Positions 9,018 through 47,564 of a stretch of 64,000 bases of DNA are shown here, piece by piece. Numbering within the stretch: position 1 is the first letter of the stretch; each line of letters starts with the position of its first letter. The DNA is taken from positions 2,399,380-2,463,379 of the forward strand of contig OZ242341.1 in the NCBI GenBank assembly GCA_965208545.1, in the 5' to 3' direction. Made by a program: the position numbers and the translations under genes. The notes under the pieces were generated by a model. It had not been told where the DNA came from. It ran no database searches and saw only the letters and a list, made by a program, of their open reading frames with translations. This DNA is from Candidatus Poriferisocius sp. (GTDB taxonomy: Bacteria > Actinomycetota > Acidimicrobiia > Acidimicrobiales > Bin134).

Positions 9018-9106
9018 TCCAAGCCCGGTTCTAGTCCTGCCGGTGGTCTGCTGATCGCTGCACCCTGTTGTGGTCGATTGCCAAGCAAACAAGCCAAAAT
9101 AGAGCC

Positions 9107-10285
9107 ATGACCGAGCTCGGATATCTCGCCTTTGACGCCGACAACCACTACTACGAGGCCACCGACGCCTTCACCCGCCACATCGACCCCAAGATGGCCA
9201 AGCGCTGTATGCAGTGGGCCGACATTGGGGGTAAGCAGCGGCTGATCGTCGGTGGGCGGATCAACCGGTTCATCCCCAACCCAACCTTCGACCCGGTGGC
9301 CAAGCCCGGCATCCTCGACGAGTACTTCCGGGCCAAGACCTCGGCCAGCGACATGCGGGAGGCGTTCGGCGAGCTCGACCCCATCAGCCCCGCCTATCGC
9401 AACCGCGACGATCGGCTGGCTCTCATGGACTCCCAGGGGCTGGGCGGCTGCTTCTTGTTCCCCACCTTGGGCGTGGGCATGGAGGCCTGCCTGGAAGACG
9501 ACCTTGGCGCCATCACCGCGGCGTTTGGGGCGTTCAACCGCTGGTTGGACGAAGACTGGGGCTTCTCCTACCAGGAGCGCCTGTTCACCGCCCTGTATCT
9601 GAGCCTGGTTGACGTGGACTGGGCGCTGGGCGAGCTGGAATGGGCCATCGGCCGGGGCCTGCGGCTGGTGAACTTCCGGGCCACCTCGGTGCCCGACGGC
9701 CACGGCAACTACCGCTCTCTGGGCCATCCCGCCCACGACCCGGTGTGGCAGTACCTCAATGACCACGGAGTGTGCGTGGCCTTCCACTCCGGCGACTCCG
9801 GCTATTCGTTCATGAACCACCGCTGGGGGCTGGGCACCGAGACCGAGGCCTTCCGCTACAACCCCCTCCAGAGTCTGCTGTCGCACTCCCCCATCAGCGA
9901 CACCATGGCATCGCTTCTAGCCGACGGCGTGCTGGTGCGGTTCCCCAACCTGCGGGTGGCCACAATCGAGACCGGCTCGTACTGGGTACGGCCCCTCATC
10001 CAGAAGCTGGCCAAGACCTACGGCCAGCACCGCCACGCCTTCGAGGAAGACCCGGTGGAGACCTTCCGCAACCAGGTGTGGGTGTCGCCCTATTACGAGG
10101 ACGACCTGCACGAACTGGCCGGGCTGATCGGCACCGATCACATGCTGTTCGGCTCCGACTTCCCCCACGCCGAAGGACTGGCCAACCCGGTGTCGTTTGT
10201 GGACGACCTCTACGGGTTCAGCGACGACGACATCCGCCGCATCATGTGCGAAAACGGCGCTGGCCTGTCGCGGCTGGCCGTCTAG
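9107..10285 (+). CDS. Amidohydrolase family protein (amidohydrolase_2 / ACMSD-like)
   Basis: ATG 9107 opens MTELGYLAFDADNHYYE (metal-binding D-x-H-like motif), and the protein ends ...MLFGSDFPHAEG. The track ORF starts at an upstream TTG (9068). Confidence 0.75.
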   Translation: MTELGYLAFDADNHYYEATDAFTRHIDPKMAKRCMQWADIGGKQRLIVGGRINRFIPNPTFDPVAKPGILDEYFRAKTSASDMREAFGELDPISPAYRNRDDRLALMDSQGLGGCFLFPTLGVGMEACLEDDLGAITAAFGAFNRWLDEDWGFSYQERLFTALYLSLVDVDWALGELEWAIGRGLRLVNFRATSVPDGHGNYRSLGHPAHDPVWQYLNDHGVCVAFHSGDSGYSFMNHRWGLGTETEAFRYNPLQSLLSHSPISDTMASLLADGVLVRFPNLRVATIETGSYWVRPLIQKLAKTYGQHRHAFEEDPVETFRNQVWVSPYYEDDLHELAGLIGTDHMLFGSDFPHAEGLANPVSFVDDLYGFSDDDIRRIMCENGAGLSRLAV

Positions 10286-10336: not shown

Positions 10337-11641
10337 ATGGCCTGGGATTTTGAGACCGAACCCGAGTACCAGGAGCAGCTGGACTGGTCCCGGGCGTTCC
10401 TCGATGAGCACATCCTTCCGCTGGAGCCCATCGAGCTGGAGGTGACCGACGAGCAGTGGAAGGCGCTGACCGCCCCGCTGAAGCAGCAGGTCAAGGACCG
10501 GGGCCTGTGGGCCTGCCATCTCGACCCGGAGCTGGGAGGCCAGGGCTTTGGCCAGGTGAAGCTGGGGTTGATGCACGAGATCCTGGGCCGATCGTCGATC
10601 GCCCCGGCCATCTTCGGAAACAACGCGCCCGACTCCGGCAACGCCGAGCTTCTGGCCATCGGCGGCAACGAGGAGCAGAAGAAGCGCTGGATGGAGCCGC
10701 TGCTGGCCGGCGAGCTGCGCTCGGGGTTCTCCATGACCGAACCCGACACCGCCGGGTCCGACCCCACCTTGTTGGAGACCAATGCAGTGCGCGACGGCGA
10801 CACCTGGGTGATCAACGGCCACAAGTGGTTCACCTCGGGCGGATCAGGGGCCGACTTCCTGATCGCCATGGTGGTGACCAACCCCGATGTCCACCCGTAT
10901 CAGGGATCGTCCATGATCGTGGTGCCCACCGACACCCCCGGTTTGGACATCGTGCGGGATGTGCCCAACATGCACCACCCCTATCCGGGCCAGTTCGCCC
11001 GCCATCCCCTGGGCCACTCCGAGGTGATCTACAACGACGTGCGGGTGCCGGCTGAGAACTTGATCGGCGAGCCCGGCGACGGGTTTGTGCTGGCCCAAAA
11101 GCGCCTCGGCCCCGGCCGCATCCACCACGCCATGCGCTGGATCGGCCAGTCGCAGCGGGCGCTGGACATGATGTGCGAGCGGGCTCTGTCCCGATTCGCC
11201 CACGGCAGCCTTTTGGCCGAAAAGCAGATGGTGCAGGACTTCATCGCCGAGACCCGCATTGATATCGCCTCGGCCCGGCTGCTGTGTCTGCACGCCGCCT
11301 GGCACATGGATAAGCACGGCTCCTCGGCGTCGCGCACCGAGATCGCCATGATCAAGGTGTACGGCACCAAGATGCTGTTCAACGCCATCGACCGCTCCAT
11401 CCAGGTCCACGGCGCCCTGGGCTACTCGGCCGACATGCCCCTAGAGGAGATGTACCGCAACGCCCGTGCCTCCCGCCTGGTTGACGGGGCCGACGAGGTG
11501 CACAAGGTGTCCATCGCCCGCCGCACCCTCAAGGAGTACGCCGCGGTTGACGGCTTTCCCACCGAGCACATCCCCACCCGCCGAGCCGCCGCCCTGGAGC
11601 GCTTCGCCGAGCACCTCGACATCGAGGTAATGAACAGCTAG
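10337..11641 (+). CDS. Acyl-CoA dehydrogenase family protein
   Basis: The 434-aa protein has GFSMTEPDTAGSDP, WVINGHKWFTSG and a C-terminal QVHGALGYS...ARASRLVDGADEVH, which are classic ACAD motifs. Confidence 0.85.
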   Translation: MAWDFETEPEYQEQLDWSRAFLDEHILPLEPIELEVTDEQWKALTAPLKQQVKDRGLWACHLDPELGGQGFGQVKLGLMHEILGRSSIAPAIFGNNAPDSGNAELLAIGGNEEQKKRWMEPLLAGELRSGFSMTEPDTAGSDPTLLETNAVRDGDTWVINGHKWFTSGGSGADFLIAMVVTNPDVHPYQGSSMIVVPTDTPGLDIVRDVPNMHHPYPGQFARHPLGHSEVIYNDVRVPAENLIGEPGDGFVLAQKRLGPGRIHHAMRWIGQSQRALDMMCERALSRFAHGSLLAEKQMVQDFIAETRIDIASARLLCLHAAWHMDKHGSSASRTEIAMIKVYGTKMLFNAIDRSIQVHGALGYSADMPLEEMYRNARASRLVDGADEVHKVSIARRTLKEYAAVDGFPTEHIPTRRAAALERFAEHLDIEVMNS

Positions 11642-11675
11642 CTCCGGCTCAACGGGGTAGGGAGGCCGGTAGCCT

Positions 11676-12278
11676 TTGGGGATGTCCAAGCCGCTGGCGC
11701 TGCGCTTTCTGCGGTCGGCCAGCGATGCCGATCAGCTGCCCGAGTCCCGTTGTGAGGTGGCGCTGGTAGGCCGGTCCAACGTGGGCAAGTCATCGCTTCT
11801 CAATGCAGTGGCCAACCGCAAGGGCCTGGCCCGCACCTCTAAGGCCCCGGGGGCCACCCGGCTGCTCAACATCTTCGAGCTGGAGGGCGAACCCGGCCGC
11901 TGGCTGGTGGACCTGCCCGGCTACGGCTTCGCCAAAGCCCCCAAGGCCGACCGCTACCGGTGGCAGGAGATGATGGACGGGTACCTGATCGACCGGCCCG
12001 CGCTCGTGCAGGTGCTATTGCTGATCGACGGCCTGATCGGCCCCACACCGTTGGATCTTCAGACCGTGGAGTGGCTGACCCACCACGAAGTTGCCCTGCG
12101 CCCGGTGGCCACCAAGGCCGACAAGGTGAAGTCCTCCCAACGCGGCGCCCGTCGAAACGAGCTGGCCCAGGGCCTCGGCGTCGCTCCCGGCGATGTACTG
12201 TGGACCAGCGCAGCCAAGGGCCAAGGCGTACCCGAATTGCGAGCCGAGTTGGCTGCCGCTCTGCGCCTCAATCCCTGA
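11676..12278 (+). CDS. engB: Ribosome biogenesis GTP-binding protein EngB/YsxC/YihA
   Basis: It has the G1 motif GRSNVGKSSLLN, then TSKAPGATR and DLPGYGFA, which together form the EngB signature. GGAGG lies 10 nt upstream of TTG 11676. An alternative ATG is at 11682. Confidence 0.8.
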   Translation: MGMSKPLALRFLRSASDADQLPESRCEVALVGRSNVGKSSLLNAVANRKGLARTSKAPGATRLLNIFELEGEPGRWLVDLPGYGFAKAPKADRYRWQEMMDGYLIDRPALVQVLLLIDGLIGPTPLDLQTVEWLTHHEVALRPVATKADKVKSSQRGARRNELAQGLGVAPGDVLWTSAAKGQGVPELRAELAAALRLNP

Positions 12279-12894
12279 GCGAAAACCCCACCGCGGCCTC
12301 CAGCTCAGTAAGCGCCTCGTCGACATCCACCACCTTGATGGTGGTCATCCCCATGGCTCGAGCCGGCTTGAGATTCACCCCCAGGTCGTCGAGGAACACG
12401 CACTCCGACGGCTCCACGCCCAGCGCCTTGCAGGCCATCGCGTAGAACGCCGGGTCGGGCTTCCGAACCCCCACCACGGACGACTCGATCACTACGTCGA
12501 ACCACTCCAGCACCTGGGCCAGCTCCGCTGACCGATCTGAAGACCCCATCGGCGAGTAGTTATTGGTCAAGAGCCCCGTCTTCAACCGCTCCGAACACCG
12601 CCGAACCGCCTCAGCCATGCTGGGAATCAGCTCCCCACCCAGGCTGTTCAACACCGCCGTCCCGTCCACCCGAAACCCCAGTGCCGCCGCCTCTGCCTCA
12701 AACGCCTCGGCGAATTCGTCCAGCCCAATCTTCCCCCGCTCCATCTGTGCCCAGGCATTGCTATCGGGATCAGTCGAATTGATCCGCCGAATCAACCCAT
12801 CCGGCAAACCATTGGCCCGCTCATAAGCCGCAAACCCCTCCCACGGCCCCGACACGATCACCCCACCCATGTCAAACAACACCGCCTCAATCAC
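12268..12894 (-). CDS. HAD-superfamily hydrolase (subfamily IA)
   Basis: It has motif I (AVLFDMGGV), then LLTNN and FLDDLGVNLKPA. Its 3' end overlaps that of engB by 11 bp. Confidence 0.8.
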   Translation of the reverse strand: MIEAVLFDMGGVIVSGPWEGFAAYERANGLPDGLIRRINSTDPDSNAWAQMERGKIGLDEFAEAFEAEAAALGFRVDGTAVLNSLGGELIPSMAEAVRRCSERLKTGLLTNNYSPMGSSDRSAELAQVLEWFDVVIESSVVGVRKPDPAFYAMACKALGVEPSECVFLDDLGVNLKPARAMGMTTIKVVDVDEALTELEAAVGFSLRD

Positions 12895-12930: not shown

Positions 12931-14148
12931 TTACTGCCGCGGGCGGACGGAGGCGGGGGTGAGGGTGGACGCTGTCGGGACGCCGATTAGGGCGAGGGTG
13001 CGGTTTAGGTCTTCGGTGAATTGGTCGATGAGGTGGTCGACGCCGGGTTCGCCGGCGGCGGCCAGGGCGTAGAGGTAGGGGCGGCCGAACATCACCGCAT
13101 CAGCGCCGAGAGCGAGGGCCATAGCGACGTGGCTTCCCCGGCGCACGCCGCCGTCGCAGATGATGTCGATGTCGTCGCCCACGGCGTCGGCCACCTGGGG
13201 CACCAACTCCAGGATGGGCGGTGCGCCGTCGAGCTGGCGGCCGCCGTGGTTGGACAGGATGATTCCGTCCACGCCCTGATCTGCCGCCATTTGGGCATCG
13301 GCCACCGATTGCACTCCCTTGAGCACCAGCTTTCCGGCCCAGCGCTCCCGGAGCCAGTCGAGGTCGTCCCACGACAGCTCCTGGTTGAACTGGTTGTGGG
13401 CGAACTCGGCCAGGCCCAGCGCCGAGCTGCCGTCGTAGCCCTGCACTCCGGTCAGGTTGGCGAAGGTGATCGGGTCGGACCGCAGCAGCGACCACGTCCA
13501 TCCCGGTCGGCGCAACCCGTCCAGCACCGTATCGGGCCCCAGCGTGGGCGGCAGGGTGAAGCCCCGGCGCACGTCTCTCTCCCGGCGGCCGAACACCGGT
13601 GTGTCCACCGCCACCAGCAGAGCCTCGTAGTCGCAGTCGGCCGCCCGCTGGAGCCAATCAGCCACCAACCCCCGGTCCCGCCAGAAGTAGAGCTGGAACC
13701 ACAGCGGGCCGTCGCTCACCTCTCTGATCTCTTCGATGGAGCGGGTGCTCAGGGTAGAAAGCGAATAGGCGATCCCCTTCCGGGCGGCGGCCCGGGCCAC
13801 GGCCAGCTCCCCGTCGGGGCACACGATGCGGGTGAACCCGGTGGGCGCCAGCGCGAACGGCACTGGATGGCGCCGGCCCAACAGGTCCACCGAGGTGTCC
13901 AGCTCCGACACGTCGCGCAGCACTCGGGGCACGAACTCCCACTGGTCGAAGGCCGCGGCGTTGCGCTCCATGGTCAGCTCGTCTTCTGCTGCCCCATCGA
14001 TGTAGTCGAACACTCCCGCCGGGAGCTGCCGCCGGGCCAGTTCCCGCAGGTCAGCCACCGACGCCGCCCGGCTCAACCGCCGCTTGGCCCGATTGGGCTC
14101 GAGGCGCCGAAACCGCGCTACCGACCGCAGCGTCCGAATCATGCCCAC
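12931..14148 (-). CDS. FMN-dependent alpha-hydroxy acid dehydrogenase/oxidase (LldD/glycolate oxidase family)
   Basis: FDYIDGAAEDE...N..AF, LVLKGV, ILSNHGGRQLDG and DGGVRRGSHV are canonical family motifs. Confidence 0.85.
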   Translation of the reverse strand: MGMIRTLRSVARFRRLEPNRAKRRLSRAASVADLRELARRQLPAGVFDYIDGAAEDELTMERNAAAFDQWEFVPRVLRDVSELDTSVDLLGRRHPVPFALAPTGFTRIVCPDGELAVARAAARKGIAYSLSTLSTRSIEEIREVSDGPLWFQLYFWRDRGLVADWLQRAADCDYEALLVAVDTPVFGRRERDVRRGFTLPPTLGPDTVLDGLRRPGWTWSLLRSDPITFANLTGVQGYDGSSALGLAEFAHNQFNQELSWDDLDWLRERWAGKLVLKGVQSVADAQMAADQGVDGIILSNHGGRQLDGAPPILELVPQVADAVGDDIDIICDGGVRRGSHVAMALALGADAVMFGRPYLYALAAAGEPGVDHLIDQFTEDLNRTLALIGVPTASTLTPASVRPRQ

Positions 14149-14209
14149 AGTCTGAACTTACAGCGGCTCTGCTCGCCGCCCCTCAATCGGGATTGTGGGA
14201 GCATTGCCC

Positions 14210-15019
14210 ATGATGGGCACTGACTACTGGCGGGAAGGCTACGTCATCCGGCGCCAGTTGGTGCCCGAAGAGATGATCGACACCCTCAACCGGAGATTCG
14301 CCGACATCGCCGAGGGCATCGTCGCCCAAGCTCCCAACATGCAGATAGCCCGCAACGTGGAGGTGGCCAAGGGATTTGTCACCCCCCGCACCCCGGCCCA
14401 CGGCATCGCCAAGGTGAACTTCGTGAATGGCGACCCGGTGCTGTCCCGCTACGCGCACTATGAGCCGATCATCGACCAGGTGGAGGATCTTATCGGCGAC
14501 GACCTGATCGCCTTGAACAGCATGTACCTGAACAAGCCCACCGATGTCGACGGCCGCCACCCCCTGCACCAGGATCTGCTCTACTTCCCCCTTCGTCCCG
14601 CCGACCGCATCGTGGGGGTGTGGACGGCGCTCGACACGATCACCCGGGAAAACGGCTGCCTGGTGGTGTTGCCCGGCACCCACACCGGTGAACTCCTCGA
14701 ACACGACTACCCCGACTGGGAGCACAAGAACTTCCTGTTCTTCGGGGCCAAGGGCATCAACGTCGACCAGCGGGTCCACCTAGAGATGGACCCCGGCGAC
14801 ACCTTGTTCTTCCATCCCCTGCTGGTCCACGGCTCTGGCTACAACCGCACCGACGACCTACGCCGGGCCATCGCCGTCCACTACGCCAGCTCCCACTGCG
14901 AAGACATCTGGCACGGTGAGACCAAAACCATCGGCAACTTCGACCCCCGCCTAGACATCCGCCTAGTTAGAGGCCAAGACCCTCACCACTACGCCCATAA
15001 CCCCGCCACATCAAGCTGA
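14210..15019 (+). CDS. Phytanoyl-CoA dioxygenase (PhyH) family Fe(II)/2OG oxygenase
   Basis: It has HPLHQDLLYFP (HxD), VLPGTHTG and HPLLVHGSG. The track ORF starts at GTG 14195. ATG codons at 14210 and 14213 are more likely starts. Confidence 0.75.
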   Translation: MMGTDYWREGYVIRRQLVPEEMIDTLNRRFADIAEGIVAQAPNMQIARNVEVAKGFVTPRTPAHGIAKVNFVNGDPVLSRYAHYEPIIDQVEDLIGDDLIALNSMYLNKPTDVDGRHPLHQDLLYFPLRPADRIVGVWTALDTITRENGCLVVLPGTHTGELLEHDYPDWEHKNFLFFGAKGINVDQRVHLEMDPGDTLFFHPLLVHGSGYNRTDDLRRAIAVHYASSHCEDIWHGETKTIGNFDPRLDIRLVRGQDPHHYAHNPATSS

Positions 15020-27055: not shown

Positions 27056-28261
27056 GGTGGCATTGAGGGTTACTTCGAAGCGGGCACCGCCGAGCTCGGC
27101 GGAATCGCCCACCTGAATGGCGCCCCGGTGGCGATCGACGATGGCCTTGACGAGGGCGAGGCCAATGCCAATACCGCCGGTTTCTCTGGCTCGGCTGCTA
27201 TCGAGGCGAACGAAGCGTTCAAAGATGCGATCACGGTCTTCAGAGCTGATTCCCGGTCCGTCGTCCTCAACCGCGATCAAGACTTTGGTGTCCTCAGCCG
27301 TCACAGTTACCACCACGCGACCCGCGGCATGGATGACTGCGTTGTCCACCAGATTGATCACTACCTGCTCGATCTGCGAGGCCACGCCATCGGCTCGCGC
27401 CACTGCCGGGCAATTCAATGAGATTGCGGACACTTCCTCTTCGAAACGATCAACCGCGTCACGGCACACCGCGGCAACATCAACCTCAGTGGTGTCGAGT
27501 TCCAAGCGATCCTCATCGAGCCGAGCGAGATCCAGCAGATTGGCAACCAGCAGCTGCATGCGCTGAGCCTCCCCCGACACCGTCTCGGCCAGCTTCTGGA
27601 GCTTGATTGGGTCGGGGCTGACCGACGCAATCTCGGCCGCCGCCACAATCGTCGACAGTGGGGAGCGAAGTTCATGGCTGGCGTCGGCGACGAATGCCCG
27701 CTGTCGCTCCGATGACGATTCCAGCCGGTCGAGCATCTCGTTCATCAGAGCAGCAAGCTTGGCGATCTCGTCTTCGCTAGCCGGCACCGGGACCCGCTCG
27801 TTGAGAGTAGAACCTGTGATTTCCGCGACCTGAGCAGAGATGTCTCGCACAGGACGCAAGGCTCGCCCCACTGTCCACCAAATGGCGAGACCGAGTGCCA
27901 CCACTACCACGGGCACGATGATCAGCAGCGCGTTTGACGCGGCGTCAACCCCGGCTTGCACTTCGCGGACGGAAGCATCGGCCAAGGCGCGCTGCTGAGC
28001 ATCGCCGCTGGATCCGCCGTCGGTTGATCCTTCGCCGCCCTCGCCGGCTTCTCCGCTGCCGCCGTCGGTTGATCCTTCGCCGCTAACGGAATGGGATGCC
28101 GATTCCAACGCAGTGCTGAGCGCGCTTCTGGCGTTGTCCTCCAGATCGCGCTCCACCAGCTGGACTATGAAGTACGACGCCAAGCCCAACACGAGAGCCG
28201 TCAACAAGGTGGCGGCCACCGTGGTCCTCCACCGCACCGACCGCAGCCGGCCAAGCTTCAT
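27017..28261 (-). CDS. Two-component sensor histidine kinase (2 TM segments, HAMP, HisKA, HATPase_c)
   Basis: I trimmed the ORF to ATG 28261 (MKLGRLRSVRW...), which overlaps the regulator stop (ATGA). It has the H-box ADASHELRSPLS, the N box DNAVIHA, and the G boxes DDGPGI and GIGIGLALV. The terminal TTYSIHPESSRYP lies beyond the ATPase domain. Confidence 0.88.
   Translation of the reverse strand: MKLGRLRSVRWRTTVAATLLTALVLGLASYFIVQLVERDLEDNARSALSTALESASHSVSGEGSTDGGSGEAGEGGEGSTDGGSSGDAQQRALADASVREVQAGVDAASNALLIIVPVVVVALGLAIWWTVGRALRPVRDISAQVAEITGSTLNERVPVPASEDEIAKLAALMNEMLDRLESSSERQRAFVADASHELRSPLSTIVAAAEIASVSPDPIKLQKLAETVSGEAQRMQLLVANLLDLARLDEDRLELDTTEVDVAAVCRDAVDRFEEEVSAISLNCPAVARADGVASQIEQVVINLVDNAVIHAAGRVVVTVTAEDTKVLIAVEDDGPGISSEDRDRIFERFVRLDSSRARETGGIGIGLALVKAIVDRHRGAIQVGDSAELGGARFEVTLNATTYSIHPESSRYP
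28014..28083 (-). repeat. 25-nt perfect direct repeat with a 45-nt period, inside the kinase sensor loop
   Basis: ccgccgtcggttgatccttcgccgc occurs at 28014-28038 and 28059-28083. It encodes the duplicated GEGSTDGG. Confidence 0.85.
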
Positions 28262-28929
28262 GTCGCCACGACCCGGTAGCCGACTCCCCGCAGGTTCTTG
28301 ATGGTGCTCACGTCGAACGGTTCGTCGACCTTGCGCCGCAAATAGCGCACGTAAACCTCCACGATCTTGGGATCGACATCGGCGTCGATACCCCACACCC
28401 GATTGAATATCTCCAGCTTGGGCACCGGAGTGTCGCCCGCTCTCATCAGCACTTCGAGAACCTGCAACTCAGTGCGGGTCAGATCGATCACCGTCTCTCC
28501 CCGACGCACGGCCGATGAGGCGACATCGAACACCAGATCGCCCACCTGGAGCACGGCGGGTCGCTCGACCGAGGGACGGCGGGCCAGCGCTCGCAACCGA
28601 GCCAATAGCACGACGAATGAGAACGGCTTGGACAGATAGTCGTCGGCACCGGTGTCGAGGGCCTCGGCTTCGTCCCACTCCCCGTCCTTGGCCGTAAGCA
28701 TCAGAATCGGGGTCCAGATCTCGGCCTCGCGCAGTTTGCGGCAGATCTGGTAGCCGTTGAGCCCGGGCAGCATGATGTCCAACACGATCACGTCATAGCT
28801 GCCCACTTTGGCCCGAAACAGCCCTTCGCGGCCGTCGTGCTCGATGTCGGCAGTCACGCCGTGCTCGCTGAGCCCCTCGCGGATCGTCTCGGCCAGCCGC
28901 TCCTCGTCCTCCACCAGCAGAACGCGCAT
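28258..28929 (-). CDS. OmpR/PhoB-family response regulator
   Basis: It has MRVLLVEDEERL, VLDIMLPGLNG, LTAKD and SKPF, followed by a winged helix ending GVGYRV. Confidence 0.9.
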   Translation of the reverse strand: MRVLLVEDEERLAETIREGLSEHGVTADIEHDGREGLFRAKVGSYDVIVLDIMLPGLNGYQICRKLREAEIWTPILMLTAKDGEWDEAEALDTGADDYLSKPFSFVVLLARLRALARRPSVERPAVLQVGDLVFDVASSAVRRGETVIDLTRTELQVLEVLMRAGDTPVPKLEIFNRVWGIDADVDPKIVEVYVRYLRRKVDEPFDVSTIKNLRGVGYRVVAT

Positions 28930-40147: not shown

Positions 40148-40663
40148 ATGGCCGGGACCAAGCCGGGACCCAATAGTGAACAGGAGCGCACCAAAGTGGT
40201 GGCCACCAATCGCCGCGCCCGTCGGGATTTCGAGATCCTCGACGAGTACGAGGCCGGCCTGGTGCTGGAGGGCTCAGAGGTTAAATCACTGCGGGAGTCC
40301 AAAGTGACGCTGGCCGAGTCGTATGCCCGAATGGCGGAGGGTGAGTTGTGGCTCCAATCCCTGCACATCGCCCCCTACTCCCATGCCAGCGGAGCCGCGG
40401 GCCACGACCCCGACCGGCCCAAGAAGCTGCTGCTGCACCGGGGCGAGCTCAACCGCATCAAGGCCCGCCTCGAGCAAGACCGCCTCACCGTGGTGCCCCT
40501 GTCGCTCTACTTCAAACAGGGACGGGCCAAAGTGCTGATCGGAGTGGCCCGAGGCCGCCGCCGGGCCGACAAGCGCCAAGCCATCGCCGAACAAGACGCC
40601 CGCCGCGAAGCCCGAAACGAGATGGGCCGAGCGGCCAAATCCAGGGGATCGCTGTCAGAGTGA
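40148..40663 (+). CDS. smpB: SsrA-binding protein
   Basis: N.RARRDFEI...EAGLVL.GSEVKSLR and the C-terminal basic tail identify it. It lies immediately upstream of the tmRNA gene. Confidence 0.92.
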   Translation: MAGTKPGPNSEQERTKVVATNRRARRDFEILDEYEAGLVLEGSEVKSLRESKVTLAESYARMAEGELWLQSLHIAPYSHASGAAGHDPDRPKKLLLHRGELNRIKARLEQDRLTVVPLSLYFKQGRAKVLIGVARGRRRADKRQAIAEQDARREARNEMGRAAKSRGSLSE

Positions 40664-40702
40664 GCCGGTATCATGGCAGGGCACCTTGACAAGAAGTGCA
40701 CA

Positions 40703-41092
40703 CGGGGCTGATCGGTTTCGACGTTGGGACCGGGGGCTGCGCTGTGCGACCCGAGTTGCTCAGACTCGCAAAACGGGGCAACCAACTAAACGGCAATGAC
40801 CGTGAACTTCTCGCAGCCTGATCATTCTGGCCAAGAGAAGAACCGCGACCGGTAACGGCACGCGGGGCCAGTCCACCGCAGCCCGGCAACAGAAGCGGCG
40901 GAGACAGTAGGGACAGACCACTGACGGCGGGAAAGACCGCTGGCTCCGGGGAACAGACCCGGTGGCGGGCCCCCAAGCGGGGGCCACCCGACCCGGCGAC
41001 GCAGCTGCCATTGACGCCGCAGACCGGGAATGGTCGTATCACAGACAGGCACCGCCCAGCGGACGGGGGTTCGATTCCCCCCAGCTCCACCA
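40703..41092 (+). ncRNA. ssrA: tmRNA (transfer-messenger RNA)
   Basis: The 5' GGGGCUG pairs with the 3' CAGCUCC-ACCA, giving a 7-bp acceptor stem with the G3:U wobble used by AlaRS. The T-arm is GGGGGTTCGATTCCCCC. An internal tag frame at 40777-40821 (GGC AAC CAA CTA AAC GGC AAT GAC CGT GAA CTT CTC GCA GCC TGA) reads GNQLNGNDRELLAA-stop. Confidence 0.9.
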
Positions 41093-41472
41093 TCACAGAA
41101 GCAGAAATACTCGAAGCAGCCGCAGACGGCCAGAGGGCATTCGACTGCCAGACCGAAGATGAACTGCTTGGATACCAAAGCACTTTCGCCGAACGCTGGG
41201 CCACGCAATAGCCCTCAGCATTGCCATCCAGTGAGTGGTGATGGGGCAATTAACGATCGCATGATGTCCAGACAATTTGGCCGGTTTAGATCAGTTGATA
41301 AATCAAATATTCATGTCTTTCTCTTGTTTTGTGATCCAATAACACAACAATGACTAGAGCTATCAAAGGGGTTTATTAGACCAGGGACAAGGGGAATTCG
41401 ATCATGTGGTGTTGCTTTCTCGGCATCTGTTAGGGTGAGCAATTCCATGAAGTTCCCGACAATCCATGTGTC

Positions 41473-41970
41473 ATGACGTCTCATTCGAATGATCCCAATT
41501 CGGTCTCACCCGAAAACTTTGGCAAAGACGAGCTGCCAGCAGCCTTTGAAGACTGCGTTGCACTGCTGGCTCAGGCAACATCATTCGCAGTGGCTCTTGA
41601 ATTGGAGCGGAGCGATCTCGATCCCAATGAGTACGCGGTATTGGAGCTCTTCTGCCAGCAAACCGAATGGACCGCAACCCAGATTGTCGAGAAGCTCTCG
41701 CTTGACCCCTCACACATAAGCCGATTGGTAGCCCATCTAGTAGATCGGCGTCTATTGCGCCGGCGGCGGTCGAGAACCGACCGCCGGGTAGTCCATCTTG
41801 CTCTAACCGAATACGGAAGCGAGATTATTGGAGACGCGCGCGACAGAGTCCTCTCCTATCAGGGCAGTCTCCTGGAAGACGTGGACAGCAAGGAACTGGA
41901 TGGCTTTTTTTCCACCGCCTCCAAGGTTTTCCAGAAACACAACGAGATCAAGACCACCTTCCACGAGTAG
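41473..41970 (+). CDS. MarR-family transcriptional regulator (paralog 1)
   Basis: It has a winged HTH: WTATQIVEKLSLDPSHISRLVAHLVDRRLLRRRRSRTDRRVVHLALTEYG. Confidence 0.85.
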   Translation: MTSHSNDPNSVSPENFGKDELPAAFEDCVALLAQATSFAVALELERSDLDPNEYAVLELFCQQTEWTATQIVEKLSLDPSHISRLVAHLVDRRLLRRRRSRTDRRVVHLALTEYGSEIIGDARDRVLSYQGSLLEDVDSKELDGFFSTASKVFQKHNEIKTTFHE

Positions 41971-42082
41971 GCCAATCATTACCCGTCGGTATTTCAGGCG
42001 CGTCTAGCGACTACACCTTCAAGATCGCATCCCCGCATGAATGCGACGCTACTTGTACCTGACTACCGCCTTCAGCTATAAC

Positions 42083-42105
42083 CATTGTCAATAGACAATG
42101 TTGTC
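42083..42105. promoter_or_regulatory. Overlapping palindromes TTGTC-AATA-GACAA-TG-TTGTC (core cattgtc-aata-gacaatg is a perfect 7-4-7) upstream of MarR paralog 2
   Basis: Read directly from the sequence. MarR proteins typically bind palindromes overlapping their own promoters. Confidence 0.45.
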
Positions 42106-42116
42106 ATGAGAGCGCC

Positions 42117-42635
42117 GTGACCCCGGAAACGAAGAGCCAGTATGCGGGCTCAGTTGAACTGCCCATGTTGGGCGACTTGTCGGCTGCTTTTGGCGACTGC
42201 GTTTCGTCATTGGCGAAGGTGATCTCCGCAGCGGTCGAATTCGAGTTGGAACGAGGCAACCTCCGTCCAATCGAGTTCGCCGTGATGCAATTGTTCTGCT
42301 ATCAACCCGAGTGGACTGCAACCCAGCTCGTCGAGAAGACGTCTATCAAAGCAGCGCACATGAGCCGCATAGTCGCCAATCTGGTAAATCGGGGCCTGCT
42401 ATGCCGACGGCGTTCGAGGACCGACCGGCGAGTCATCAATTTGTTGTTGACCGACTACGGAGGCGAGATGATCGCCGAGGCGCACACCAGGATCATCTCT
42501 TACCAAGCAGCCCTCTTGAAAGATGTGAGTGACCAGGAATTGAGCGGCTTTCTTGCCACTGCCCGCAAGGTCATCCAAAACTACGCCGACCTGGCGCCCT
42601 ATCAATCCCAGGTGTCCGGCTTGGGCATGCGGTAG
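42117..42635 (+). CDS. MarR-family transcriptional regulator (paralog 2)
   Basis: It has WTATQLVEKTSIKAAHMSRIVANLVNRGLLCRRRSRTDRRVINLLLTDYG. The start is GTG 42117 or ATG 42165. Confidence 0.85.
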   Translation: MTPETKSQYAGSVELPMLGDLSAAFGDCVSSLAKVISAAVEFELERGNLRPIEFAVMQLFCYQPEWTATQLVEKTSIKAAHMSRIVANLVNRGLLCRRRSRTDRRVINLLLTDYGGEMIAEAHTRIISYQAALLKDVSDQELSGFLATARKVIQNYADLAPYQSQVSGLGMR

Positions 42636-44986
42636 CCGACACGGGGAACGGTGATGATGTAGCGAGGGCTTTTGGCCCGGTCGCCGAGCTTGTGTCTCAG
42701 ATTCTTGACCATTGTTCGCATGGGGCGGAAGTCACCGGTGCTATTCGGACCCCAAATCTTCTTCTGCAATTGATCGTGGGTCAGTGCCACCCCGGGATTG
42801 GCTGACAGCTCCACGAGAAGTCGATATTCGGTAGGGGTCAGGTCGACGATGCGACCGGCTACCGACACCGAGCGTTCGGCGAAATCAATAGCCAGCTCGT
42901 CGAAGATGTAGGACGCCTGCGTGCTCGACCGCTTGCGCAGGGCGGCCTTGACCCGTGCGGTCAACTCAGTGGTAGAGAACGGCTTGACCATGTAGTCGAC
43001 GGCCCCCATCTCAAAGGCCTTGGAAATGAGGTCCTCCTGATCGAATGACGACAGCAGGATTACCGGCGTGCCGCGGGTCAAGTGGATGTCCCGCATCAAC
43101 TCCATTCCGTCTGCGCCCGGAATCATCATGTCCAACAGCACCAGATGGGGATCCGTCTCCTCTATCAGAGCGACCACTTGCTGGGGATCCCCGGTGACGA
43201 CCGGGTCGCATCCCGCGCCCTGAAGCGCGTCCCGAATGTGCTTGAGAGTCCTGGGCTCGTCGTCGACGGCGAGAACACGCGGCTGGTCGCTGTCGATCGA
43301 CTGCGGGAAGCTAACCCCGGTAGGCATCACCCTGCCAGGGCCCTCTTCGGCGGTCGGAATGGTGAATGTGAATCGGCTGCCCAAGCCCGGCCCGTCGCTC
43401 TCGGCCCAAATCCTGCCCCCGTGGGCTTCCACGATGCCCTTGCAGATAGCCAGACCCAAATCGAGGTCTCGACCGTGGCCGTTTCCTGGCGGCCGGGAGT
43501 ATTTGCTGAACAGGTGCGGAATCCACTCGGCGGCAACGCCCCGCCCATCGTCGGTGACGGAGAAGGCGACGTGGACATCTTCGGCAACGGCGTCAATTCG
43601 TATGGGCGACGTATCGTGGGAGCTGCGAGATGCGTTGGACAGGAGATCGCCGAATACCTGGACGAGGCGACGTCGGTCGGCGTACACCAGGGGCAGCCCT
43701 GGGGCAAGGTTGATGCGAACGTTGTCCCGGCCGCCGGCGCTGATGAAAGTGTTGCGAGCCTCATCGACCACTCGAGACACCTCCAATGGCTCCGGATTCA
43801 CCGACAGCGTGCCCGTGTCGATCCGCACGACATCGATCAGGTTGCCGACCAGATCCCGCATGTAGTCGGCTTGCTCGCTGATTATCCGGTGATATTGGGA
43901 AACCTCGGCGGGGTCTAACGACGATTCCGCCTCCAATAGCGTGGCCACTGAGCCCTTGATGCTGGCCAGCGGCATTCGAAGCTCATGGCCGACGACTCCC
44001 AGAAATTCGGCGCGCAGCCGCTCCAGCTCTGATTCCTGGGTCATGTCCTGAAATGTGGCCATGACCGACTTCAACTGCCCGTCGGAGGATCGGACGGGCG
44101 TGGCGTTAACCAAGATGATCACGGTTTGCCCACCGGGACTCTCGATGACGATCTCCTCATCTCGCACCGTCTCCCCAAAGCTCAGGGCCTCAACGATCGA
44201 GGTGCCCTCCTGAGAGATCTTCCGACCATCTGCCCGGCTGAATACCAGGGCGCTGAGGAGGTCCTCCACGGAACCGTCGGGAAGGCGCCTCTCACGGATG
44301 ATCCTGCGAGCCTCACGGCTGACCGACCGAGTTGCCCCGGTCTCGGCGTCAAACACCACCAACCCCAGCGGGGCGGTGTTCACCAAGGTTTCCAGGTCTA
44401 CCCTGGCCTGAAGCTCCTGTTGGTATCGACGGGCGTTAGAGATGACTAGGGCGGCCTGCGAAGCGAACATGACCAACGTCTCCTCGTCATCGGCCGTAAA
44501 TCCCCCATCTCCCTCTGAGGCCGGGAATTCTCTTTGTTTCTCGGCCAAGAAGATGCCGCCAACCCGCTCACCTTGGAAGCGGATCGGTGCCCCCAAGAAG
44601 GAGACCCCCGAACTCGCCGGCACCGGTAGACGCACCTCGGGAATACCCAATTCCTTGATGTGGCTGAGCAGATCCCGCACTCGAAGCGGATTCTCCTTCC
44701 CAAACACTGCCTCTAGGACCTCCCACTTCTCCGGAAGTCCCCACAGATCCTCGTTCTGCTCGGGCGTGAAGCCAGAAGAAAGAGAATCCACAACCTCTGC
44801 GTGGTCATCGACCAGAACGATCACCCCGTAGCGGGCACCCATCAATAGCCGGGCGCTGTCCAACACCCCCTGCAAAACCTCACCGAACTCCAAACTCTCA
44901 TTGATTCGCAAGCTGGCTTGACTCAGCTTGGACAAGCGCTCCCGCAGTCGCCCGACCTCCAATGCCAGCTCATCAACCCGATTCAC
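42602..44986 (-). CDS. Cytoplasmic GAF-PAS sensor histidine kinase fused to a complete OmpR-type response regulator (REC plus winged helix)
   Basis: It is a single 794-aa ORF with these parts in order. GAF-like N-terminus: LRINESLEFGEVLQGVLDSA. H-box: GHELRMPLASIKG. ATPase boxes: LLSNASRSS, TDDGRGV, GLGLAICKGIV. REC: VDDEP, LLDMMIPGADG, VKPF. Winged helix: LTPTEYRLLVEL...VPRVGYRM. Confidence 0.85.
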   Translation of the reverse strand: MNRVDELALEVGRLRERLSKLSQASLRINESLEFGEVLQGVLDSARLLMGARYGVIVLVDDHAEVVDSLSSGFTPEQNEDLWGLPEKWEVLEAVFGKENPLRVRDLLSHIKELGIPEVRLPVPASSGVSFLGAPIRFQGERVGGIFLAEKQREFPASEGDGGFTADDEETLVMFASQAALVISNARRYQQELQARVDLETLVNTAPLGLVVFDAETGATRSVSREARRIIRERRLPDGSVEDLLSALVFSRADGRKISQEGTSIVEALSFGETVRDEEIVIESPGGQTVIILVNATPVRSSDGQLKSVMATFQDMTQESELERLRAEFLGVVGHELRMPLASIKGSVATLLEAESSLDPAEVSQYHRIISEQADYMRDLVGNLIDVVRIDTGTLSVNPEPLEVSRVVDEARNTFISAGGRDNVRINLAPGLPLVYADRRRLVQVFGDLLSNASRSSHDTSPIRIDAVAEDVHVAFSVTDDGRGVAAEWIPHLFSKYSRPPGNGHGRDLDLGLAICKGIVEAHGGRIWAESDGPGLGSRFTFTIPTAEEGPGRVMPTGVSFPQSIDSDQPRVLAVDDEPRTLKHIRDALQGAGCDPVVTGDPQQVVALIEETDPHLVLLDMMIPGADGMELMRDIHLTRGTPVILLSSFDQEDLISKAFEMGAVDYMVKPFSTTELTARVKAALRKRSSTQASYIFDELAIDFAERSVSVAGRIVDLTPTEYRLLVELSANPGVALTHDQLQKKIWGPNSTGDFRPMRTMVKNLRHKLGDRAKSPRYIITVPRVGYRMPKPDTWD

Positions 44987-45122
44987 CGGCCCACCCCTCG
45001 CCCCATGCGATCCGGTTGCTCACACCCTAAAACCCATTCCAATCGCCGAAGCTCATAACTGCCTCACAATGTAGTGGCTTGAGCATCGGCCCACATTTGG
45101 GCCTCCGAGAATCCGGAAACTT

Positions 45123-45605
45123 CTACCGACCGGAGGATTCTTCGAGCTTTTGGAGGTTCTTGTTGATCTTGTCGGTGGTCGTGTGAAAGCCAGCCAGCTC
45201 TCTAGCCCCCACTCCCCGCAAGAGCATCGCCTCGTGAGCCTTCATCTGCTCGGCGATCTCCTCGGACAACTGGGCCCCCCGGTCGGTGAGCGTCAAATAG
45301 ACAACGCGGCGGTCTGTGCGACCCCGCCGTCGACGCAGAATGCGATTGTCAACCATCTTGGCCACGAGCCGGCTCATGCGCGATGGGTCGATATCGAGGT
45401 GGTCCAGAAGCTGGGTTGCGCTCCACTCATCTCGCTTGGCAAAAAGTTGCAATACGGCAAACTCATTCACATGAAGGCCGTGGCGCTTGACTTCGCTTCT
45501 CACACCCAATGCGATCGCGCTATCCAGGCACGCCACGCTTTCTTGCAACGTCATGGGCTGGTCGTCCTGTCCAGATTGAGAGGATTGTTCAGACACTTGA
45601 TGCAC
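45123..45605 (-). CDS. MarR-family transcriptional regulator (paralog 3)
   Basis: It has WSATQLLDHLDIDPSRMSRLVAKMVDNRILRRRRGRTDRRVVYLTLTDRG. The start is GTG 45605; an internal ATG alternative opens MTLQES. Confidence 0.85.
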   Translation of the reverse strand: MHQVSEQSSQSGQDDQPMTLQESVACLDSAIALGVRSEVKRHGLHVNEFAVLQLFAKRDEWSATQLLDHLDIDPSRMSRLVAKMVDNRILRRRRGRTDRRVVYLTLTDRGAQLSEEIAEQMKAHEAMLLRGVGARELAGFHTTTDKINKNLQKLEESSGR

Positions 45606-46069
45606 CTTGCTTGTTGTATTGGGCCTATGACTATGAAATGCGCCACTCAGTAGCTCATCTCATCTGAGCAGAATACAGGATCAAATGCGCTACTTTCGTG
45701 TCTTGTAGACAACTCCGGCCTCAATATTGCCTGATCACCCTCTTCAAATATCTCGACCATTGGCAGAATCAACCGTAATAGTCATGACTAAATCACATAA
45801 AGATCACAATTGGTTTTGGGTGATATTGCGGTTGACATCACCCACGTTCAATCCTTGAATACAACCCTGACAAAATACACACGGCAACTGTAGCAATGAT
45901 TTATTTTTACTACTATTTTTTTATGTCTCGTTATATTTCTGCCACGTTTAGCGAATGTCAACCGGATAACCAGGTCAAACCACCGTTGGAAACCAAGACA
46001 GCACCCGTGGTGATGCTAAGAGCATTGAGAACCAAGGATCGACAGCTCTCAACAGGCCAAGCAGGGATA

Positions 46070-46681
46070 TCAGACCTCGGTGGCTCGCCAGCAATACCAA
46101 GCGGCGACACTTCGGTAGGGACGGAATTGGTCGCCCAGCGGTCCCAACTCATCGGCAGAGGGGGCTTCAGTCCAGCCGTGGGCCAGGCCGTAGCCCTTGC
46201 GGACCCCGAAGTCGCCCACCGGCCAGACGTCGAGGCGGCGCAGCGAGAAGATCAAGAACATCTGGGCGGTCCAGGTGCCGATGCCCCAGACCTGACTGAG
46301 CTGTTCGATCACCTCCTGGTCAGACAGCCGGCCCAAGCAGGCCAAATCGAGCGAGCCCTGCTCGCAATGAGCGGCCAAGTCGAGCATCGCCCGGGTCTTG
46401 GCCCCCGATAGCCCGGCACCTCGCAGCGGCTCTTCCCCTAGCGCCAGCACCGCACCGGGAACCCACTCCGGTGCCTGTTCCCGCACCCGTCCCCAGATGG
46501 CGCTGGCCGCCTTGCCAGCCAACTGCTGGTAGGCGATTTCGCGGCTCAGCACTTCGAATCGCTCCCCCACCGGGGGCTTGGGGCCGAACCGGGCCGGCCC
46601 GAATCGATCCACAAGATCGGCCATCACCGCTGATGTCTGGGCCAAGGCACGGCTGGCCTCGGTCAAGCCAGTTCTGCTCAC
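46070..46681 (-). CDS. DNA-3-methyladenine glycosylase II family (HhH-GPD, AlkA-like)
   Basis: It has QQLAGKAASAIWGRV, GLSGAKTRAMLDLA, and VWGIGTWTAQMFLIF...D.WPVGDFGVRKG (the HhH-GPD motif with catalytic Asp). Confidence 0.8.
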   Translation of the reverse strand: MSRTGLTEASRALAQTSAVMADLVDRFGPARFGPKPPVGERFEVLSREIAYQQLAGKAASAIWGRVREQAPEWVPGAVLALGEEPLRGAGLSGAKTRAMLDLAAHCEQGSLDLACLGRLSDQEVIEQLSQVWGIGTWTAQMFLIFSLRRLDVWPVGDFGVRKGYGLAHGWTEAPSADELGPLGDQFRPYRSVAAWYCWRATEV

Positions 46682-46718
46682 GCCTACGCCTCAGTTTCGA
46701 TCAGGTCAGGGATCTGCG

Positions 46719-47564
46719 CTACCCGTCGGGGGCCTGCTGTGTCGCCGGCTTGACGATCACCCTAGCGATGCGCCGCCCGGTGACCCGCTCTACCAGTAAC
46801 TCCCAGCCATCCATGACCAGCGTCTCCCCCTCTTCGGGCACATGGCCCAGAGTGTTGAAGATCAGACCCCCCACCGTGTCCCAGTCGCCGTTGGGCAGTG
46901 GCGCCGCTAGCACCTCGCTGAGCTCGTCGATGGGAACCCGGCCGTTCACTCTCACCGTGCCGGGGGCCAACCGCTCGATCATGGGCTCCTCGACGTCGAA
47001 CTCGTCGACGATCTCGCCCACCAGTTCCTCGATGAGGTCTTCCAACGTGACAACGCCAGCGGTGCCCCCGTACTCGTCAACCACGATGGCGATGTGAAAC
47101 TTTTCAGCCTGCATCTCCCGCAGCAAGAGAGCGATGCGCTTGGTCTCGGGCACGAAACGAGGCGTGCGGGCCACCGCCACCGCCGGAGAGTGCTCCCCTT
47201 GGTCCCGCTCGGCCCGCATCAGGTCTTTGGCGTGCACTACGCCCACCACGTCGTCGATGCCCTCGGCGTACACCGGCACCCGGCTATAGCCGTGCTCGAT
47301 GACGATGCCGATGGCCTCGCTTACCGTGTGCTGGTCGCTCATCGCCACTGTGTCGGTGCGGGGCACCATCACTTCCCGCACCACCGTGTCGCCGAACTCA
47401 ATTATCTGGCCGATCAGCTCCCGCTCCTCGGGCTCGATAGCGTCCGAGGCTTCAGCCGCCTCCGCCATGGCCAGCAGCTCTTCCTCCGACACCTGGGGTG
47501 CCTCGCGGCGCCAGCTGGCCTGCACCAGCCGGCGAAGCAGCCCGAAACGGCCCAACACGCTCAC
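46719..47564 (-). CDS. corC: CBS-pair plus CorC/HlyC C-terminal domain protein (CorC/YbeX type, no membrane DUF21 domain)
   Basis: It has VREVMVPRTD, VVDEYGGTAGVVTLEDLIEELVGEI and GGLIFNTLGHVPEEGE. Its position after phoH-ybeY matches E. coli ybeZYX. Confidence 0.75.
   Translation of the reverse strand: MSVLGRFGLLRRLVQASWRREAPQVSEEELLAMAEAAEASDAIEPEERELIGQIIEFGDTVVREVMVPRTDTVAMSDQHTVSEAIGIVIEHGYSRVPVYAEGIDDVVGVVHAKDLMRAERDQGEHSPAVAVARTPRFVPETKRIALLLREMQAEKFHIAIVVDEYGGTAGVVTLEDLIEELVGEIVDEFDVEEPMIERLAPGTVRVNGRVPIDELSEVLAAPLPNGDWDTVGGLIFNTLGHVPEEGETLVMDGWELLVERVTGRRIARVIVKPATQQAPDG

Follow-up and report, generated by a model that had tools for sequence, protein, structure and literature searches.

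Regulator genes behind the tmRNA gene of a Candidatus Poriferisocius genome: probable long-term residents of an ssrA-alkA hotspot

The 3' ends of transfer-messenger RNA (tmRNA) genes are a general hotspot for integration, and a block of atypical DNA that begins at the very next base raises the question of whether it is a mobile element, the remains of one, or something that has settled there. Such a block lies at positions 41093-46069 of a 64,000-nucleotide stretch of Candidatus Poriferisocius sp. (GenBank assembly GCA_965208545.1, contig OZ242341.1, positions 2,399,380 to 2,463,379; hereafter, the window), directly after the tmRNA gene ssrA. It encodes only regulators, that is, three paralogous MarR proteins and one 794-aa protein in which a histidine kinase and a response regulator are fused. 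The original prediction, made from the letters of the window, took it for either the decayed remnant of an integrative element or a horizontally acquired, self-contained signalling cassette, and knew of no described class of island made of regulators alone. In this paper we compare the locus with the corresponding loci of related genomes and conclude that the block is likely to be an old, maintained, lineage-restricted regulator cluster resident in the ssrA-alkA hotspot and not a mobile element, its four-gene form being the ancestral one among carriers.

About 33 close relatives were retrieved by a scan with SmpB (78-95% identity). All are sponge metagenome-assembled Acidimicrobiia, and many of them are named 'Candidatus Poriferisocius', for which a literature search returned incidental mentions only; L-numbers label the fetched loci. 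The tmRNA gene of the window (40704-41092, plus strand) was found by ARAGORN and by Rfam (RF00023, 64.4 bits), carries the tag GNDRELLAA and encodes its CCA end, which confirms the predicted end at 41092. Its 3' end is the left limit of a variable region, as homology to the approximately 33 relatives stops at 41090-41092. The right limit is the stop codon of an alkA-like glycosylase gene of the HhH-GPD family (46070-46681, minus strand; Pfam), and homology returns at 46069-46072 in those relatives where alkA is within reach. Limits that had been drawn from the window itself thus coincide with the homology breakpoints to within 1-3 bases on both sides.

The block is also compositionally distinct, as predicted. 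Its guanine-plus-cytosine fraction (GC) is 0.565, compared to a mean of 0.653 (standard deviation 0.014, minimum 0.626) over all 5-kb windows of the 64 kb that lie clear of the block, a deficit of approximately 6 standard deviations, and the profile falls from 0.65-0.69 in the flanks to 0.44-0.60 across 41.0-46.1 kb. The spacers that contain the three spots named as AT-rich have GC values of 0.474 (41093-41472), 0.507 (41971-42116) and 0.431 (45606-46069); with a fourth at 44987-45122 (0.574), the non-coding spacers add up to 1126 bp, or 23% of the block. At third codon positions (GC3) the three MarR genes reach 0.62, 0.73 and 0.70 and the kinase fusion 0.75. Because genes in the flanks lie at 0.74-0.86, the kinase gene is barely atypical, and the dip is due mostly to the spacers and the MarR genes.

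Marks of mobility were sought in several ways. A second copy of the ssrA 3' end was not found with up to 3 mismatches in 25 nt, nor by a 13-mer search with mismatches, and repeat finding over 40600-46800 returned no repeat family and no attachment (att) repeat. Pfam recognized regulators only and no integrase among the proteins of the block, tblastn with the integrase of locus L011 gave no match in the block even at E<=10, and the end of the tmRNA was the sole match of the block to Rfam at a permissive threshold. The reported lack of an integrase and of a second ssrA end is therefore borne out. Of the features by which ssrA islands are recognized, the block has the position directly 3' of the tmRNA gene, empty sites in relatives and atypical composition; it has neither an integrase or integrase remnant nor a distal repeat of the ssrA end.

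The same interval in the relatives shows what kind of site this is. In five related species smpB and ssrA are followed directly by alkA, with 16-88 bp between ssrA and alkA (L002, L010, L012, L014 and L015), so that the comparison proposed with the original prediction identifies the block as an accessory segment at the ssrA 3'-end hotspot. Another relative has an interval of 175 bp with no open reading frame (L030). Elsewhere the site is occupied by a short-chain dehydrogenase (L003, L032), by an AAA_14/DUF4143 ATPase, in some cases accompanied by an FtsX permease or a protein of approximately 1400 aa (L001, L006, L016, L019, L020, L024), by Fic (L021), by an AAA_15/AAA_21 ATPase (L026), or by RCC1-repeat, serpin or fn3/cadherin-like proteins (L025, L033, L021, L005). 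An intact P4-type integrase (Arm-DNA-bind_3, Phage_int_M and Phage_integrase) starts 143 bp past ssrA in L011; fragments of the same integrase directly follow ssrA in L013, L023 and L025, and in the latter two, elements of 7.4 and 8.7 kb are bordered on the side away from ssrA by a perfect 21-nt copy of its 3' end. Because relatives carry an intact integrase, integrase remnants, ssrA-end repeats and unrelated cargo, the ssrA-alkA interval is a hypervariable, integrase-served hotspot, and the suggestion that the ssrA end is an integration site holds for the siblings of the window. The order of events can be read in L088, in which a 22-nt fragment of the ssrA end lies between a newer, helicase-bearing element and older content, a catabolic module and the MarR cluster. 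Because this repeat separates the two, the locus shows serial accretion, that is, new elements enter at ssrA and displace older content toward alkA.

The regulators of the window are shared with some of these relatives. In L004, L007 and L008 (80-81% nucleotide identity) and in L094/L095 the interval consists of the same four genes, arranged and oriented as in the window, and they recur in L083 (85.6% identity), where four more genes stand between ssrA and MarR-A; a search for the four genes as a cassette elsewhere, suggested at the outset, thus had a positive result. The additional genes of L083 form a CoA-dependent catabolic module of an Amidohydro_2 protein, an 830-aa double family-III CoA-transferase (CoA_transf_3), a Thiolase_C_1 protein and a DUF35/ChsH2-type OB protein; the Thiolase_C_1 protein is an SCP-x-type thiolase, for which the nearest NCBIfam model is 'lipid-transfer protein'. 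This module lies directly upstream of MarR-A in four sister lineages, and L084/L085, L088 and L091 have it together with the three MarR genes and no kinase gene. Loci L087 and L092/L093 contain the MarR trio with other left neighbours, and L018 contains MarR-B and MarR-C only. In every one of these carriers the MarR cluster adjoins alkA. In one of them, L004, MarR-C is split into two overlapping tblastn segments (13949-14427), which could reflect a frameshift or an assembly error, and the gene may be a pseudogene.

In the kinase-less variants the insertion or deletion corresponds to window positions 42622-45121. Parts of the kinase gene survive in locus L092: its first 45 codons (80% identity, E=8e-14), a remnant of its 3' part and the spacer upstream of it. 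Because of these remnants the kinase-less state, at least in L092, is a deletion, with the four-gene form ancestral among the carriers. Because sister genomes carry the module beside the MarR cluster and because kinase-less deletion forms exist, 'regulators only' describes one of the forms that a modular locus takes, in which the MarR cluster is retained, several lineages have lost the kinase gene by deletion and the module is present in four. The idea of a class of islands made of regulators is therefore not supported. No remnants of the catabolic module were found in the window, L004, L007 or L008, and elsewhere in the window there are only paralogues of 27-37% identity. Genomes that carry the module first align with the window at 41292, which is 25 bp past their DUF35 stop codon; the preceding 199 bp (41093-41291, plus strand) are specific to the window, with no blastn match in any cassette-bearing relative. 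This left margin is probably the scar of earlier content lost by deletion. It contains a frame of 39 codons (41092-41211) with a weak resemblance (42%, 28.5 bits) to residues 359-394 of a 395-aa protein in L022 (13694-14881, minus strand).

If the cassette were decaying or newly arrived, its genes should betray this in their rates of substitution. Between the window and L004, L007 and L008, the kinase fusion has a nonsynonymous divergence (dN) of 0.07 and a synonymous divergence (dS) of 0.55, the MarR genes have dN of 0.13-0.21 and dS of 0.5-0.8, and the flanking core genes have dS of 0.4-0.7. The ratio dN/dS is 0.1-0.4 over the cassette, and within the clade of L004, L007 and L008 cassette and flanks are equally diverged too. 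Because dN/dS is low and the dS of the cassette is like that of its flanks, the four genes appear to be functional and to have co-diverged with their hosts, which would exclude both active decay and recent acquisition. The GC content is alike, 0.57-0.58, in all carriers, and low GC is for this reason a lasting trait of the segment that does not point to a recent arrival. On the species tree the carriers fall in two separate clades, split by genomes with empty or differently filled sites; this distribution implies either that the cassette was lost or overwritten repeatedly or that homologous recombination spread it.

The kinase fusion (42602-44986, minus strand) is a two-component system in a single polypeptide of 794 aa. 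Pfam orders it as a coiled N-terminus, GAF, PAS, HisKA, HATPase_c, Response_reg and an OmpR-type winged helix (Trans_reg_C, 69.3 bits), and the residues expected of each step are present: His334 in HELRMPL, a G1 box DDGRG at 479, the receiver Asp in LVLLD at approximately 617, and Lys668 (KP). Hydropathy gave no membrane segment (maximum KD19 1.40). Because H-box, G1 box and receiver Asp and Lys are present and a hydrophobic segment is not, the protein is predicted to be soluble, with phosphotransfer from sensor to OmpR-type output inside one molecule. An exact-protein look-up found no record of it; at least 120 full-length homologues of 56-62% identity were found, with a single architecture throughout the best 120 matches, many of them on megabase contigs of related symbionts and several per genome or contig. 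Loci L021 and L033 contain kinase-fusion paralogues of 49-50% identity no more than 10 kb from ssrA. The large symbiont family and the native-like GC3 together suggest that the kinase gene is of within-lineage origin. Two paralogues of approximately 60% identity were inspected for MarR neighbours and had none, and on this basis the pairing of kinase and MarR genes is specific to this locus. We know of no description of an expansion of soluble, single-chain GAF-PAS-kinase-receiver-OmpR-type proteins in sponge-associated Acidimicrobiia, and this large family merits specialist attention. The window itself has, in addition, a separate histidine kinase and OmpR-type response regulator (27065-28926, minus strand) that are approximately 29% identical to the matching parts of the fusion.

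The three MarR proteins all pass the Pfam gathering scores for MarR_2 and MarR, and the predicted set of three paralogous MarR proteins and one fused kinase/response regulator is upheld by Pfam. MarR-A (165 aa; 41473-41970, plus strand) scores 40.6 bits for MarR_2 and 38.1 bits for MarR; its orthologues in 8 genomes are 63-88% identical, with dN/dS of approximately 0.24. MarR-B (172 aa; 42117-42635, plus strand; MarR_2 36.6 bits) has dN/dS of 0.3-0.4, and its gene shares the last 34 nt with the convergent kinase gene. MarR-C (160 aa; 45123-45605, minus strand) has dN/dS of approximately 0.16, and its gene and the kinase gene follow each other on the minus strand, MarR-C first. Identity is 53-57% between A and B and 38-44% between C and either of them (38-57% over all pairs). 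No MarR protein reaches an NCBIfam equivalog cut-off, the best sub-threshold matches being HpaR, Saro_0803, BilQ and OhrR, and their relatives in PDB are generic MarR entries at no more than 37 bits. The search for further relatives yielded 24 matches in 5.8 billion clusters; it relies on shared 5-residue words, and remoter relatives may exist. A metagenome scan with MarR-C found no relatives. Redox sensing by one cysteine of the N-terminal helix, as in OhrR, was considered and rejected, as the Cys is not invariant: MarR-A of L087 has Ser in its place, and in MarR-C its position differs, with L007 and L008 lacking it.

In all contexts retrieved except one, the MarR relatives are orthologues in the alkA-adjacent cluster. 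The exception, L090, encodes a more distant relative (9001-9447; 53% identity to MarR-A) whose neighbours are an IS110 transposase and a type I-U-like CRISPR-Cas cluster (Cas_GSU0053/54, Cas3 and Cas4-Cas1). A MarR subfamily so nearly confined to a single chromosomal setting also merits specialist attention.

The spacers contain several candidates for cis-acting elements. The longest is a densely conserved region of approximately 250 bp upstream of MarR-C (45606-45860, minus strand; 9-genome alignment), which is more conserved than synonymous sites and contains a palindrome TAGTCATGACTA at 45779-45790, an invariant block AGTTGTCTAC and a direct repeat TGTGAT-N5-TGTGAT at 45792-45808. This repeat is unique in the window; its exact form occurs in 7 of 95 fetched loci, all 7 of them carriers of the MarR cluster and always upstream of MarR-C. 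Direct repeats spaced at 11 bp are typical recognition sites of OmpR-family dimers, and the TGTGAT repeat is a candidate binding site of the kinase fusion. The region has no matching Rfam family, and a structured leader RNA was rejected (covariation term -1.84 kcal/mol; 2 compensatory pairs of 60). Because there is no Rfam match and essentially no covariation, the conservation is best read as acting at the level of DNA, with sites for DNA-binding proteins and promoters as the presumed cause. Upstream of MarR-B, 16 nt before its start, is a perfect 7-4-7 palindrome, CATTGTC-AATA-GACAATG (42083-42100), unique in the 64 kb even when up to 2 mismatches are allowed and a candidate MarR operator. 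The 64-kb window contains no other copies of either candidate operator motif.

The conserved spacer upstream of MarR-A (41292-41472, plus strand; 8-genome alignment) includes a block TTTCTC-N-TCTGTTAGGGTG with a -10-like element of the type TAnnnT, and the spacer between MarR-C and the kinase gene (44987-45122, minus strand; 5-genome alignment) includes the block GTGTGAGCAAC. Between the region upstream of MarR-C and alkA is an AT-rich, variable segment (45861-46069), present in some cassette carriers and absent in others, into which an inverted repeat, I4, extends (45811-45838 and 45955-45982).

From these parts a working scheme can be proposed. DNA entering on the ssrA side would push older content toward alkA; where the module stands in sister lineages, upstream of MarR-A, the window has only the probable 199-bp scar. 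MarR dimers would occupy the conserved, AT-rich promoters from which they are themselves expressed, and those of the module where it is present, and would come off the DNA when a small ligand is bound, for which an aromatic or acyl-CoA intermediate is plausible. Judged by adjacency and by the usual role of MarR regulators, the MarR proteins may regulate the catabolic module. The kinase fusion would sense a cytoplasmic signal through GAF and PAS, autophosphorylate on His334 and pass the phosphoryl group to its own receiver Asp, after which it would bind DNA by its OmpR-type domain, with TGTGAT-N5-TGTGAT upstream of the marR-C/kinase operon as the candidate site. In the window genome the regulators would act on themselves, on targets elsewhere, or on both.

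How firmly can a resident cluster be preferred to the alternatives? That the block is the decayed remnant of an ssrA-integrating element, in which integrase, att site and cargo were lost and the regulators are leftovers, draws on the use of this site by integrase-bearing elements, on the decay of integrase genes there, on the left margin at 41093-41291, which resembles a deletion scar with a gene fragment, and on damage in other carriers: L018 has lost two of the four genes, MarR-C of L004 is frameshifted and the kinase of L092 is internally deleted. It sits badly, however, with four genes that are intact in the window and in at least 4 other species and under purifying selection (dN/dS of 0.1-0.4 over dS of approximately 0.55), with 250 bp of non-coding DNA that outdo synonymous sites in conservation, with the failure to find an att repeat or an integrase remnant at E<=10, and with the location of the cluster at the alkA-proximal, that is, the oldest, position. 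We regard this part of the original prediction as quite improbable. Its other part, a recently acquired and self-contained foreign cassette that owes its low GC to a donor of different composition, is very unlikely, and of all the readings considered here the one we trust least. The low GC (0.565 vs 0.653), the patchy occurrence on the species tree and a MarR subfamily without other detected relatives would all suit it; the between-species dS of the cassette, however, equals that of the flanking core genes, as expected if it co-diverged with its hosts, its GC of 0.57-0.58 is alike in all carriers and stems largely from AT-rich spacers and small MarR genes, and the kinase gene has a native-like GC3 of 0.75 and at least 120 full-length family members in the same symbiont group.

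Two further readings keep the cluster as an old possession. The MarR cluster may already have been part of the ssrA-alkA interval in the ancestor of the genus, as a core region later deleted or overwritten in most lineages, which differs from a resident cluster gained at the hotspot solely in the age of the gain. Two separate clades have the cluster in the same place and direction, its dS matches the flanks, deletion of the kinase gene is documented, and the spacers of the 'empty' sites share no similarity with one another, as independent deletions would give. The cluster is absent, however, from the deepest-branching genomes sampled (L030, L013/L017, L014 and the group of L029, L019, L022, L025 and L027), and its composition is atypical; we consider so early a gain unlikely. 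It is a more open, if still doubtful, possibility that the four-gene cassette is a stable 'regulatory islet', maintained by selection, that has long been kept without linked targets and acts in trans. The window, L004, L007, L008 and L094, none of which has linked target genes, are the grounds for this. If it were true, a cross-regulating trio of MarR proteins and a two-component system in one protein would rewire the control of core genes or of remote accessory genes, with a metabolite from the host as one conceivable signal.

The preferred reading, a maintained resident cluster, has difficulties of its own. No integrase, att repeat or other direct trace of the arrival of the MarR cluster was found. 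The species tree is a neighbour-joining tree of three proteins, and it does not decide between an ancient gain with many losses and spread by homologous recombination. In L083, the closest relative of the window in the flanks, MarR-A and MarR-B (dS 0.2-0.3), dS rises to 0.56-0.75 for the kinase gene and MarR-C; this mosaic indicates that recombination within the cassette has replaced alleles. The MarR proteins and the module are linked by adjacency only, no 9-mers are shared between the upstream spacer of the module and the spacers of the cassette, and the module, confined to the sub-clade of the window, may be a later, unrelated neighbour. Conservation and symmetry are the sole grounds for the candidate operators, the palindrome at 42083-42100 is only partly conserved among relatives, and a scan of the block for consensus sigma-70 promoters gave 0 matches, a result that is uninformative in an actinobacterium.

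Several observations concern the surroundings of the cluster and the hotspot at large. In Pfam searches the genes beyond the alkA-like gene encode CorC, YbeY and PhoH, and those upstream of the tmRNA gene encode SmpB, Era and a DinG-like helicase. The spacer between smpB and ssrA is also variable, with an insert of approximately 1.3-2 kb in many relatives and none in the window. In L018 the insert (10502-12324) encodes HalD-like and 3-hydroxyisobutyrate-dehydrogenase-like proteins; the same spacing, with the tmRNA start near 12474, is seen in L011, L013, L015, L020 and L022, and inserts of other lengths in L003, L012, L019, L023 and L026. The tmRNA genes themselves differ: CCA is encoded in the window, L018 and L021, most relatives (L001-L033) read CTCCAC and then T, and the tag alternates among close relatives between GNDRELLAA-like and DT(K/D)(S/R)VPLAA-like forms. 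A motif of approximately 30 nt, TCTGATTACGCTATTGAGTAATTTTACTCA, directly follows ssrA in L001 (10944-10975), L003, L006, L016, L019, L020, L024 and L083, whatever gene comes next, but not in the window; the motif includes the hairpin TTGAGTAA-TT-TTACTCAA and could be a terminator or the end of an element.

Among the genes that fill the site in relatives, two sets recur, the AAA_14/DUF4143 ATPase with a protein of approximately 1400 aa (DUF8371 in L092) and proteins of 1470-1700 aa with a double DEAD and UvrD helicase. They are located in L001 (11004-16411), L019, L020, L024, L092 (1-9351), L022 (15288-19703) and L088 (1-2629), and look like candidate defence modules. Eukaryote-like proteins, which are typical accessory genes of sponge symbionts, occur in sibling islands as a protein with 26 RCC1 repeats, a serpin and fn3/cadherin-like proteins (L025, 14241-18995; L033, 15436-17070; L021, 16540-19698; L005, 11668-12996).

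The locus reveals no new kind of system. It documents how an ssrA hotspot evolves in uncultivated sponge symbionts, by entry at the tmRNA end, a push toward alkA and losses by deletion, and it shows that a regulatory core can outlast its neighbours in this turnover. MarR repressors of aromatic or CoA-dependent catabolic operons are known, for example those of the HpaR and CouR/HcaR type, and the MarR proteins described here are like them in being small winged-helix proteins that stand, in sister genomes, beside a catabolic operon and have AT-rich, partly palindromic promoter regions. They are unlike them in that there are three paralogues per cluster, no adjacent operon in the window genome and no equivalog score. 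The kinase fusion resembles the hybrid two-component systems (HTCS) of Bacteroides (PMC11253607) in having kinase, receiver and DNA-binding output in one chain, which implies intramolecular phosphotransfer. Bacteroides HTCS, however, sit in the membrane, sense in the periplasm, have AraC-type outputs and govern polysaccharide utilization loci (PMC11253607), whereas the fusion is predicted to be soluble, with GAF/PAS sensing and an OmpR-type winged helix, and is not a member of that group. The closest parallel for the site is given by the ssrA-specific islands of Dehalococcoides (PMC3146451), where, as here, variable DNA starts at the 3' end of a single-copy tmRNA gene, a tyrosine integrase by ssrA and short direct repeats of the ssrA end are found (in our case, in siblings), and serial accretion makes the site a major source of difference between close relatives. 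Unlike those islands (PMC3146451), the segment in the window has no integration module or repeat, has apparently co-diverged with its host and encodes regulators only. Because the two defining features, integrase and att repeat, are missing, the locus should be described not as a member of the ssrA-island family but as resident content of the ssrA hotspot.

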